A DNA stretch of 64,000 nt from Escherichia coli (GCF_003018115.1 NZ_CP027458.1), one strand, 5' to 3'; counted from the first letter of the stretch, positions 46,301 through 49,300 are shown. Made by a program: the numbers.

Positions 46301-49300
46301 CTTTCAAGCGAAGCTGAATGACGGCATGAAACGCTTTATGAGTGGCACTCCTTCTTGCGAGAGACGCTTTTTGTCGTTCTCTCGCAGGAACAGGATTCCC
46401 CCTTCTGTAAGGTCGCTTTTTTCCCGATGAGGAAGTCTCTGCATTTACTGTCTGCGACATCTCGCCTCCTCTCTTCTCAGACAGGGATCGTTTCGCAGAG
46501 GATACTACAGTTTTTTGAAATCAGCGACTTGAGAATTGTGACGAAGATCTGTGTTGGCGCACAAATCAACGGGGATTACTGTTGTTTAATGTGATTTTTG
46601 TTGCGAAATGGCTGAAAAACAGGAAATGCCTTAACCTGTGTGCCGGCCCCGGGCGGGACCGGCGGTTTCTGGCATGTCGGGTGTCTGCCCCTGAAATACC
46701 TCACACTTCCGGAAAGCGGGGACTTCCGTCCCCGCCCGGCAGCTTACTTCCGTGCTTCGTAGGCCAGAGTTACCTGCACCACTGTATTTCCCCTGTGAAT
46801 ATTCAGCTCACATAACCGTTCCCTGAATATCAGTGAAAAACACAACACCGTGGCGCACACGGCGAGCAACCCAATAAGGGTATATTTCGTCATAAACTTT
46901 GACCTCTCTGCAAGGAAGAGGCTACAATCAGTAGTGCTACGTACTTCATGCAGGCCTCACGAGTTAATGGATTAACAAGTGGGGTCTTCGCATTTCTGGT
47001 ACCTGCGTCTTGCCTGAACCAGAAAGGCTCAGACACCCGCCGCGATAATACCACATTCCCTGTTGCTGACTATTCCCTCCATTTCCCGCTTTTCGCTACA
47101 GAAACGCCGGGGACGGGGAAAACTTGCTTTTTCCCGTCCCCGGGGTTGGACAACTGAGCAACGCGAAGGCGTCAGTGGATTTTTATGATCCTTCCAAACT
47201 CTGCTTCCATTTTTTTCATATCCTGTTCTCTTACTGCGACTATCAGTTGTTTTCCTGATTTTCGTGCCACTCTGGCAAACTGCATGACGGCAGATTCATT
47301 ATTCAAATCAGGCCATCCTGTACAATTAAAAATAATAATATGCTCACTGGCGTTCAGTGCATCCCTGATAAAAATAACCGCATAATCATTTAATGTTCTG
47401 TCAGAACAACTGTAAATCTGGCTGAAATCATAATACTTATAATCAGTGATATTCAGTTTATTTAAAAAACCATCAACTTCAGAAGCTGAGTCCCCACTAT
47501 AAGAACATTATGATTAGACGATGTGATTAATTCTGATACTGCCTGATAGTTCATTTGTTCACCTTTCATTAACAGAGAAATAAGTTAATAATGTAATATG
47601 CTTCATGCTTTTAAATATCGCATTTCAATGAGAACTCAATAGCCACAGAAATATCATTATTTCCGTGAGCGCCATACCCAGGGCGGAACAGGAGCGCTGT
47701 CTGCCCACAGACCACGTTTCTGCTGTCGAGCTTCTCCCTGCAGGACGGGAAGAACAGGATCGGTGTTGTACTGCTCATAAACCCATGCAGCGCCTGCACG
47801 GACCATAAACTGATTAACATTCATTCCGTCTGGTGCATAAACCTGCCCGAGAATACGACCATAACGATCTCGCTGAAAATATGTGACAGTAACCGTTTTT
47901 CCCGTAACCAGAGATTTCATTATTTTTTCAGACCACCGTCCATAGTCCTGTTTCTTTTCAGGTGCATCAATATTAACAAGACGGACACGCACCGGATGCT
48001 GAGATAACATGACGTCAATGGTATCGCCATCCAGAACACGCACGACCCGTCCATGAATATCAGCAGAAAAAACCTGACATGAAAAAACAAATAATACCAC
48101 TGGTATATATTTCTTCATTTTACTCTCCGTCACTGATTACCTTTCGTGATTGCATGAATTCCATGCCGGGATGAATAACGGCTCACACATCACGCCAAAA
48201 ATAAACCGTTGAATTGTGATCAATTAGACAAAATAAGATGAGCTGGCTTAATACACATATGGCTATGTGTTACTAAAAACGCTGGTCAGCCAGCCTGACC
48301 AGACACATAAGAAACAAAGTCTCATGCATTATTCAGCCTTCTGATACCTGGAGTAACGAAGGCTGCTTTTTCTGTCACGTATTTCCCGTGACGGCGTTAC
48401 CGGTTTCCGGGGGTAACATGTGACGGAGATTATATTTTTAATCTCCGTGTATTCATCATACCTGCTCTTGCTGATAGGATAACTGTGTTATATCGCAGGC
48501 TACCGGATGTGGCGCTGAATATAATGGTCATAGATAAGTCATACATGCCCTGCTCAGGGGATTAGCGATAAGACGGACCGGGAGAGTCATCTCCCGGTTT
48601 TTCTTTATCCTGCCGCGAATACAGCCCGGCGGTCTGTCAGATTCACCGGATAACCCTGCTGTTATGCATGCCACTGTCACCTCCTGCTTCTTGAAATTCA
48701 TCACATTTTTTATCCCTGCTGGCTTACCCGGGATGTGAAATATGTTAATTCTGTGATGTCCGTTTGAAAGACAGGGCAACTCCTTCTTACACCACTATAA
48801 TAATAATAACGATCTGCCATATAAGCCTGATCCCCCGGAGCTCCGCGACGGGGGTTATTTTTATCGGCACTTACACCGGCATGCAGATGCCCTCTTCAGG
48901 GCAAAATCCCGCCATGCTTCACAGGGTGCCAGCCGGGCCGCATTCTGCCAGGCCTCTGCCGCTTCCCTGAAAAAGCCACGAATCTCCTGACGGACGGCAT
49001 GACGCCCCACGCGCTGATAGCGATAAATACCGCAGTGCTCAGATAATCCACTGGATACAGCCATTTTTTATCCCCCCCTTGACCCGGCTCCCGGATTATG
49101 TCAGAAACATTATGAAACATCCCTGAACGGTTGGGTGTTTTTCTCCATCAAAACTCTGGATGTCTGTTTTCCCGATTTTTTCGCTGTTGCCCTCTGTCAT
49201 ACAGAGGGCTCTTTTATTCCGCCAGGATCGCCCGCTGCTCATCCTTGATCCGGTTCTGTCTGCGCACCTTTTCCAGGCGCGCCTGCGCATACTGTTCTTC

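Follow-up and report, generated by a model that had tools for sequence, protein, structure and literature searches.

A probable srnB/srnC-type toxin–antitoxin module of the hok/sok family on an IncF-type Escherichia coli plasmid

A stretch of 64,000 nucleotides (nt) of Escherichia coli DNA (GCF_003018115.1, NZ_CP027458.1; hereafter the window, with positions counted from its first letter) carries a small toxin locus that is, with a high degree of confidence, a type I toxin–antitoxin of the hok/sok family and of srnB/srnC type, situated on an IncF-type plasmid, most likely serving as a post-segregational killing, or addiction, system. The locus is already known, ordinary, and routinely annotated at the protein level, and nothing in it is new to biology: srnB/srnC, characterized since 1991, ranks with the most common features of IncF plasmids. 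What is gained is a second plasmid-addiction module beside ccdAB in the annotation of the window, and a fixed extent for that module, including the RNA components left out of protein-based annotation—the antisense gene, the upstream open reading frame (ORF), and the 5′ and 3′ pairing elements. An earlier note on this DNA had placed the system at 46744-46960; the toxin gene does lie inside that interval, but the full module extends beyond it on both sides, to about 46641-47072. Here we describe its sequence features, its homology, and the alternative folds predicted for its RNA.

The toxin gene and its family

46744-46893, minus strand: toxin gene, SrnB-type Hok family peptide; ATG start, 49 amino acids (aa) plus stop (ORF listing, Pfam, RefSeq, peptide alignment)
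46903-46908, minus strand: candidate toxin Shine–Dalgarno (SD) sequence GAGAGG, 9 nt before the ATG

The toxin ORF translates as MTKYTLIGLLAVCATVLCFSLIFRERLCELNIHRGNTVVQVTLAYEARK, letter for letter the 49-aa minus-strand peptide that the earlier note had read by hand translation. The Hok/SrnB toxin signature claimed for that peptide is equally clear: the Pfam profile HOK_GEF (PF01848) covers residues 5-45 with 36.3 bits (E=4.1e-9; the gathering cutoff is 22), and the peptide is 98% identical to SrnB of plasmid F (NC_002483, toxin at 2926-3075). Membership of the Hok/Gef family (PF01848) was judged by a length of about 50 aa, an N-terminal hydrophobic helix, conserved Cys, a C-terminal AYE, and a score above gathering. 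Besides its score, the toxin has the conserved Cys and the C-terminal AYE, and an alignment of the window toxin with F SrnB and two PndA-like peptides shows C13, C18, and C28, together with L43-A44-Y45-E46, to be invariant. Database searches for Hok/SrnB similarity return clear matches to the peptide and, as described below, to the RNA leader (Rfam, E=4.9e-21). Nor is the gene hidden, as had been supposed, since it is publicly annotated: in RefSeq record NZ_CP027581 it carries the label "Hok/Gef family protein" (WP_001336447.1).

The intact 49-aa ORF is kept in 105 of 114 related loci, across which variant codons number 24 synonymous versus 14 nonsynonymous, and the toxin ORF is under purifying selection. 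Its small size is the single feature that would suit a functionless chance ORF in intergenic DNA, a reading that is refuted by the Pfam match (E=4e-9), the Rfam match (E=5e-21), conservation in thousands of plasmids, and this purifying selection, and to which we assign a negligible probability. The candidate toxin SD is predicted to be mostly base-paired in both of the RNA forms described below, with a pairing probability of 0.61-0.66 by folding.

A terminator-like hairpin also lies within the toxin coding region (46846-46864, minus strand), with seven pairs, five of them G-C, followed by UUGUGUUUUU. It is the same in F bar one loop base, and it may be a chance occurrence, given that shuffled sequence averages 0.8 such sites.

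Promoter, transcript, and leader

47045-47072, minus strand: predicted toxin-mRNA promoter; TAGTCA, 16-nt spacer, TATTAT, with TG upstream (extended −10) (promoter scan)
46641-47038, minus strand: predicted mRNA for the toxin, about 398 nt long if it ends with the last GC hairpin (Rfam start, folds, conservation across 114 loci)

The +1 of the toxin mRNA is predicted near 47038, and the Rfam leader model begins exactly there. This model, RF01794 ("sok"), matches over its full length (positions 1-157) from 47038 to 46883 on the toxin strand, scoring 93.1 bits against a threshold of 59 (E=4.9e-21); through it the locus displays the leader structure of the hok family, a 5′ tac stem followed by the antisense-target hairpin. 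A "sok" match on the minus strand might suggest that the antisense gene itself lies there, a possibility that we rejected since the model spans the mRNA +1 to the toxin start region. In control searches, the match again fell in the sense orientation, with 95 bits for F srnB and 133 bits for a PndA-like locus of an IncI-gamma/K1 plasmid, so the model describes a toxin mRNA leader containing the antisense target. The antisense RNA would be the complement of roughly model positions 44-104.

Alignment places the start of homology with F at about 47066, just upstream of the toxin-promoter −10. The predicted length of 398 nt is also that of the full-length hok mRNA of plasmid R1 (398 nt), but the agreement is coincidental: the truncated form of R1 ends at a GC stem near nt 345-358, whereas in the window the corresponding stem is at 46714-46737 and the fbi equivalent at nt 347-360.

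Some 35 nt upstream of the toxin promoter, the sequence reads as a GC-rich inverted repeat, CCGGGGACGGGAAAA ... TTTTCCCCGTCCCCGG (47107-47143), which probably terminates transcription of the upstream gene and would insulate the weak toxin promoter.

An upstream reading frame that abuts the toxin gene

46890-46949, minus strand: upstream ORF of 19 codons, MKYVALLIVASSLQRGQSL; ATG at 46949-46947, TGA at 46892-46890

An overlapping, mok-like upstream frame had been proposed for this locus, and the frame does exist, but it overlaps the toxin gene by only 4 nt: its TGA and the toxin ATG share the stop–start sequence ATGA at the end of a 19-codon ORF. The ATG at 46949-46947 is the first start codon of the frame within the predicted transcript; a GTG at 47054, given as the start in the ORF listing, lies upstream of the predicted +1. 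A GAGG stands 5 nt before the ATG, and the start is located within the predicted antisense footprint. This geometry is unlike that of both R1 and F. A stop–start overlap of the ATGA kind is a standard coupling arrangement, and translation of the toxin may be coupled to that of the upstream ORF.

A predicted switch between two RNA folds

47030-47038, minus strand: 5′-terminal element GGGUGUCUG, tac equivalent, with two alternative partners (46679-46687, or 46981-46987 in 3′-shortened RNA)
46981-46987, minus strand: ucb, or anti-SD, equivalent AGACCCC; partner of the upstream-ORF SD in the long form and of the 5′ end in the short form
46918-46958, minus strand: antisense-target hairpin, outer stem GAGGC/GCCUC (folds and Rfam structure line)
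46714-46737, minus strand: GC-rich hairpin directly after the toxin stop (minimum free energy [MFE] fold)
46679-46692, minus strand: fbi equivalent ..CAGACACCC, complementary to the mRNA 5′ end (folds)
46642-46663, minus strand: 3′-terminal GC hairpin GCCGGUCCC-GCCC-GGGGCCGGC (MFE fold)

MFE structures and partition functions of the mRNA were computed with four 3′ ends (46641, 46679, 46700, and 46709), and these fall into two forms. In the long form (3′ end at 46641 or 46679), nt 1-9 (47038-47030) pair with 46679-46687, and the GAGG of the upstream ORF (46955-46958) pairs with CCCC at 46981-46984. In the short form, which ends at 46709 or 46700, it is with 46981-46987 that the 5′ end pairs, forming the same helix as in the Rfam consensus, and the GAGG pairs with 46918-46921, closing a 41-nt hairpin. 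The outer stem of this target hairpin thus joins the upstream-ORF SD to the dcb equivalent (46918-46921), and its apical loop is CGUAGCAC (46934-46941). Pairing probability in the upstream start-codon region drops from 0.97 in the long form to 0.04 in the short form.

A switch between tac/fbi, ucb, and dcb pairings is the scheme established for R1 hok (PMC9841398). Folding the mRNA for tac/fbi elements had been suggested as a check on the locus, and the full-length MFE structure does pair the 5′ end with 46679-46687; the exchange of tac/fbi for tac/ucb upon 3′ shortening is reproduced in silico, in agreement with the hok model (PMC9841398). By analogy, the hairpin at 46714-46737 would sit where truncated hok mRNA has its protective terminal stem.

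A predicted antisense RNA

46899-46928, plus strand: predicted antisense (srnC-type) promoter; TTGACC, 18-nt spacer, TACAAT; 10 of 12 consensus matches (promoter scan)
46935-46995, plus strand: predicted antisense RNA (SrnC equivalent), about 60 nt (promoter geometry and fold)

The earlier note had expected an antisense RNA on the plus strand around 46890-46960. The strand is as expected, and the scan located a predicted promoter at 46899-46928 whose sequence is identical in F; the coordinates, however, sit about 40 nt too far left for the RNA body, at about 46935-46995. The interval first proposed holds the antisense promoter and only about the first 25 nt, or about a third, of the RNA. The start is predicted at 46934-46936, and we infer the ends to within about 2 nt (5′) and about 5 nt (3′). 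In its predicted fold, the RNA comprises a short 5′ segment and a long hairpin (46948-46993, −21.8 kcal/mol, z=−2.5); it covers the start codon and SD of the upstream ORF, and complementarity to the target loop lies at its 5′ end. A delay of SrnB toxicity by SrnC has been demonstrated (PMC12390103).

Alleles of the target loop

46935-46941, minus strand: polymorphic loop patch CGTAGCA, a 7-nt allele (F alignment, allele counts in 126 loci, clustering test)

The loop patch reads GAAGTA-CGTAGCA-CTAC in the window versus GAAGTA-CCTTAACA-CTAC in F, making the window one base shorter. The patch forms the apical loop in the predicted target hairpin, and the first nucleotides of the antisense RNA are its complement. 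A one-genome-per-species scan gave just three loci, and diversity was sampled via a metagenome scan instead; 120 loci from that scan, a pattern search on the conserved flanks, were combined with three genome-contig and three plasmid loci to give 126. Nine alleles in two length classes were found: CCTTAACA (78 loci), CGTAGCA (20), TCTCAACA (11), CTTGAACA (9), CGTTGCA (3), TCTCGACA (2), and three singletons. Alleles of 7 nt account for 26 of the 126 sampled loci, and the exact 91-nt leader of the window occurs in 98 PLSDB plasmids, so the window allele is not rare. The 8-nt alleles typically lead into an in-frame 68-aa form; all 7-nt alleles lead into the 19-codon ORF ending in ATGA. Inside each length class, variation in the upstream ORF is mostly synonymous or conservative.

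Common polymorphisms cluster at the patch, with six in eight columns of the 399-column transcription unit (permutation p ~0.012, from a test that assumes independent columns and serves as a rough guide only). Over the 17-18-nt contact segment, the predicted duplex energy is about −28 kcal/mol for cognate pairs and from −12 to −21 between allele classes. The data thus show polymorphism of the loop, clustering, and weaker predicted pairing of noncognate RNAs; the functional consequence stays a proposal. Our tentative suggestion, which we think is probably not correct as it stands, is that the loop, facing the first 6-8 nt of the antisense RNA, could be a specificity hotspot whose alleles form recognition groups and at the same time act as a single-base switch of translational coupling. 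If this were true, an antisense RNA would poorly neutralize the toxin mRNA of a co-resident or displaced F-like plasmid with a different allele, and the allelic series could bear on cross-talk between addiction modules when F-like plasmids compete. Leader ORFs and antisense RNAs were explicitly set aside in a recent survey of Hok diversity (bioRxiv 10.1101/2025.08.07.668861).

Two further observations accompany the sampling. A second cluster of common polymorphisms spans 46672-46678, where five of seven columns have a minor-allele frequency of at least 5%; flanked by the fbi-like element and the terminal hairpin, it falls in a part of the mRNA that is expected to be trimmed. Three srnB-leader loci came from a Streptomyces morookaense contig and from gut metagenome-assembled genomes (Lachnospiraceae, Collinsella), and these probably represent contaminating or mis-binned enterobacterial plasmid DNA.

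Proposed mechanism and competing explanations

For the srnB/srnC-type killing system that we favor, the transcript ends and their processing, the action of the antisense RNA, the coupling of translation, and the killing itself may be modeled by homology to F srnB and R1 hok. The weak extended −10 promoter would yield a stable mRNA of about 400 nt, born inactive, with its 5′ end (47030-47038) paired to 46679-46692 and the upstream-ORF SD held by the anti-SD at 46981-46984. Slow 3′ trimming would then remove the 3′ partner, allowing the 5′ end to capture the anti-SD and the leader to refold into the hairpin at 46918-46958, exposing the upstream start codon and the apical loop. In plasmid-bearing cells, the strong plus-strand promoter at 46899-46928 would supply a short-lived antisense RNA, about 60 nt long, that would bind the refolded mRNA via its loop-complementary 5′ end, blocking the upstream ORF and triggering decay by RNase III. 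Upon plasmid loss or transcription shut-off, the antisense RNA would decay first and the 19-codon ORF would be translated; ribosomes would cross the paired ribosome-binding site of the toxin, stop at the UGA in AUGA, and reinitiate on the 49-aa membrane toxin, and the cell would be killed.

Such a mechanism would sense the loss of antisense transcription generally, such that shut-off by phage or by rifampicin would also release the toxin. Conceivably, then, an active module could be selected mainly for abortive infection or a stress response and not for plasmid addiction. Phage exclusion by hok/sok counts in favor of this explanation, as does the origin of srnB, which, going by the title of Nielsen et al. 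1991, was reportedly found through rifampicin induction. We nevertheless hold it to be improbable: the locus adjoins the replication control region, and in complete E. coli genomes, where it is present in 1,997 of 5,426 (about a third), 2,158 of its 2,188 places are on plasmids, which fits a role in maintenance. The two roles are, moreover, compatible.

Several points weigh against an ordinary, working srnB/srnC system. Evidence for this allele consists of sequence and prediction, the transcript ends being predicted as well, and for an RNA of 400 nt, MFE folds give no more than an indication. A terminator scan of the locus found no canonical intrinsic terminator for the toxin mRNA or the antisense RNA, and both 3′ ends are left approximate, that of the toxin mRNA possibly falling at any point between about 46610 and 46641. 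The toxin also scores below the curated cutoffs of the NCBIfam HokA equivalog (NF007290, 34.5 versus 89 bits) and Hok subfamily (NF007279, 32.6 versus 73 bits), which makes it a Hok/Gef member by Pfam and not an equivalog of chromosomal Hok proteins; by its sequence, it belongs to a distinct SrnB-type subgroup apart from these. The upstream ATG of F shares the toxin frame and yields a 68-aa SrnB, whereas in the window it opens a 19-codon ORF ending in AUGA, out of the toxin frame because one base is missing in the loop patch relative to F. Lastly, the folds indicate that the unpaired loop YUNR kept by all four 8-nt alleles examined is absent from most 7-nt alleles, the window's included. Given a loop without YUNR and the altered geometry of the upstream ORF, kinetics could differ from those of F.

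The one-base deletion and the missing YUNR would also fit an srnB/srnC homologue whose allele in the window is attenuated or inactive and carried passively next to the replicon. We regard this as unlikely, in view of how common the 7-nt alleles and the exact leader are, and because the 49-aa toxin is intact in 14 of the 17 loci with the window allele, counting the three commonest toxin forms shown for it. Codon 4 of the 19-codon ORF is only ever GTA, GTT, or GTC (Val), TTA (Leu), or ATT (Ile), as fits a maintained ORF, the ATGA overlap is a standard means of coupling, and the remaining regulatory elements are all identical to those of F.

Distribution and other features of the window

46203-46460, minus strand: repA2/copB, flanking gene
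47657-48133, minus strand: thermonuclease, flanking gene
45986-46075: CopA RNA (Rfam scan)
987-1509, minus strand: ccdA/ccdB (98.6% and 99% identity to the query sequences)

The 521-bp stretch at 46600-47120 is 100% identical in eight E. coli plasmids, and the locus turns up in 2,899 PLSDB plasmids, the majority of them conjugative plasmids of Escherichia and Klebsiella. In NZ_CP027581 the order is finO, thermonuclease, hok, RepA regulatory protein (repA2/copB), tap, and IncFII repA, and the window has the same order. The flanking genes and the synteny with F agree with the position that the earlier note had given, between repA2 and the nuclease gene, as for srnB/srnC in F. Its claim of at least two killing systems, counting ccdAB, is also upheld by the ccdA/ccdB genes at 987-1509. 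Rfam and protein searches of the window found no second Hok-family gene or sok element, and a small panel of queries gave no match in the window for pemIK, vapC, relE, parE, or higB, with only ccdAB matched.

Between the nuclease gene and the toxin locus lies a hypothetical gene of 127 aa (47175-47554, minus strand), intact in pSTEC866 (2066-2449). In the window, tblastn splits it into 47554-47465 and 47495-47175 in different frames, and this copy is probably a frameshifted pseudogene. Beside the nuclease gene, Rfam AS-pc02 (antisense to pHK01_099) matches at 48295-48437 on the plus strand with 49.4 bits against a threshold of 40, a shorter and weaker match than that of the F copy (87 bits, F 1670-1782). 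The antisense RNA families AS-traI and AS-traG score above their Rfam thresholds in the transfer region (53369-53445 and 62757-62842, both plus strand). For 36000-58000, the best-matching plasmids come from Shiga-toxin-producing E. coli and carry the adhesin genes iha and saa; across the full 22 kb, no PLSDB record reaches 99%, so the backbone is a mosaic.

Comparison with known systems

The hok/mok/sok system of R1 (parB) and the window locus are alike, by the predictions made here, in a stable mRNA of about 400 nt, 5′–3′ pairing, an anti-SD switch, a leader ORF that starts within the antisense target, and an antisense RNA that is about 60 nt long and comes from a leader-internal promoter. 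They differ in the toxin, which is only about 39% identical to R1 Hok over 41 aa, and in their reading frames: mok and hok of R1 are two overlapping coding sequences (PMC9841398), whereas the leader ORF of the window overlaps the toxin gene by only 4 nt. Compared with the hok/sok Rfam consensus, several base pairs of the target hairpin are noncanonical in the window, and the inner hairpin is built differently.

The pndA/pndB (pnd) system of IncI plasmids such as R483 shares with the window a Hok/Gef toxin and a toxin-strand match to the same Rfam leader model, and two PndA-like Hok/Gef peptides from MOBP/MPF_I plasmids are 47% and 43% identical to the window toxin. It nonetheless represents a different sequence subgroup on a different plasmid backbone (IncI-gamma/K1; MOBP, MPF_I).

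Closest is srnB/srnC of F, for which post-segregational or rifampicin-induced killing is known from the literature. The toxins differ at one of 49 residues (T5 in the window, A5 in F). Alignment to F, set beforehand as a check, shows nearly identical DNA from about 47066 to past the 3′ hairpin, taking in the antisense promoter, the −10, the 5′ end, the anti-SD, fbi, and the hairpins. Upstream of the toxin-promoter −10, the −35 region included, the window is unrelated to F, and the apical loop of the target is CGUAGCA in the window versus CCUUAACA in F. Both loci match RF01794 in the same way and occupy the same place, between the finO/nuclease region and repA2-CopA-tap; near-identity to F and the position next to a RepFIC/IncFII copB (repA2) together place the window locus in the srnB/srnC subgroup.

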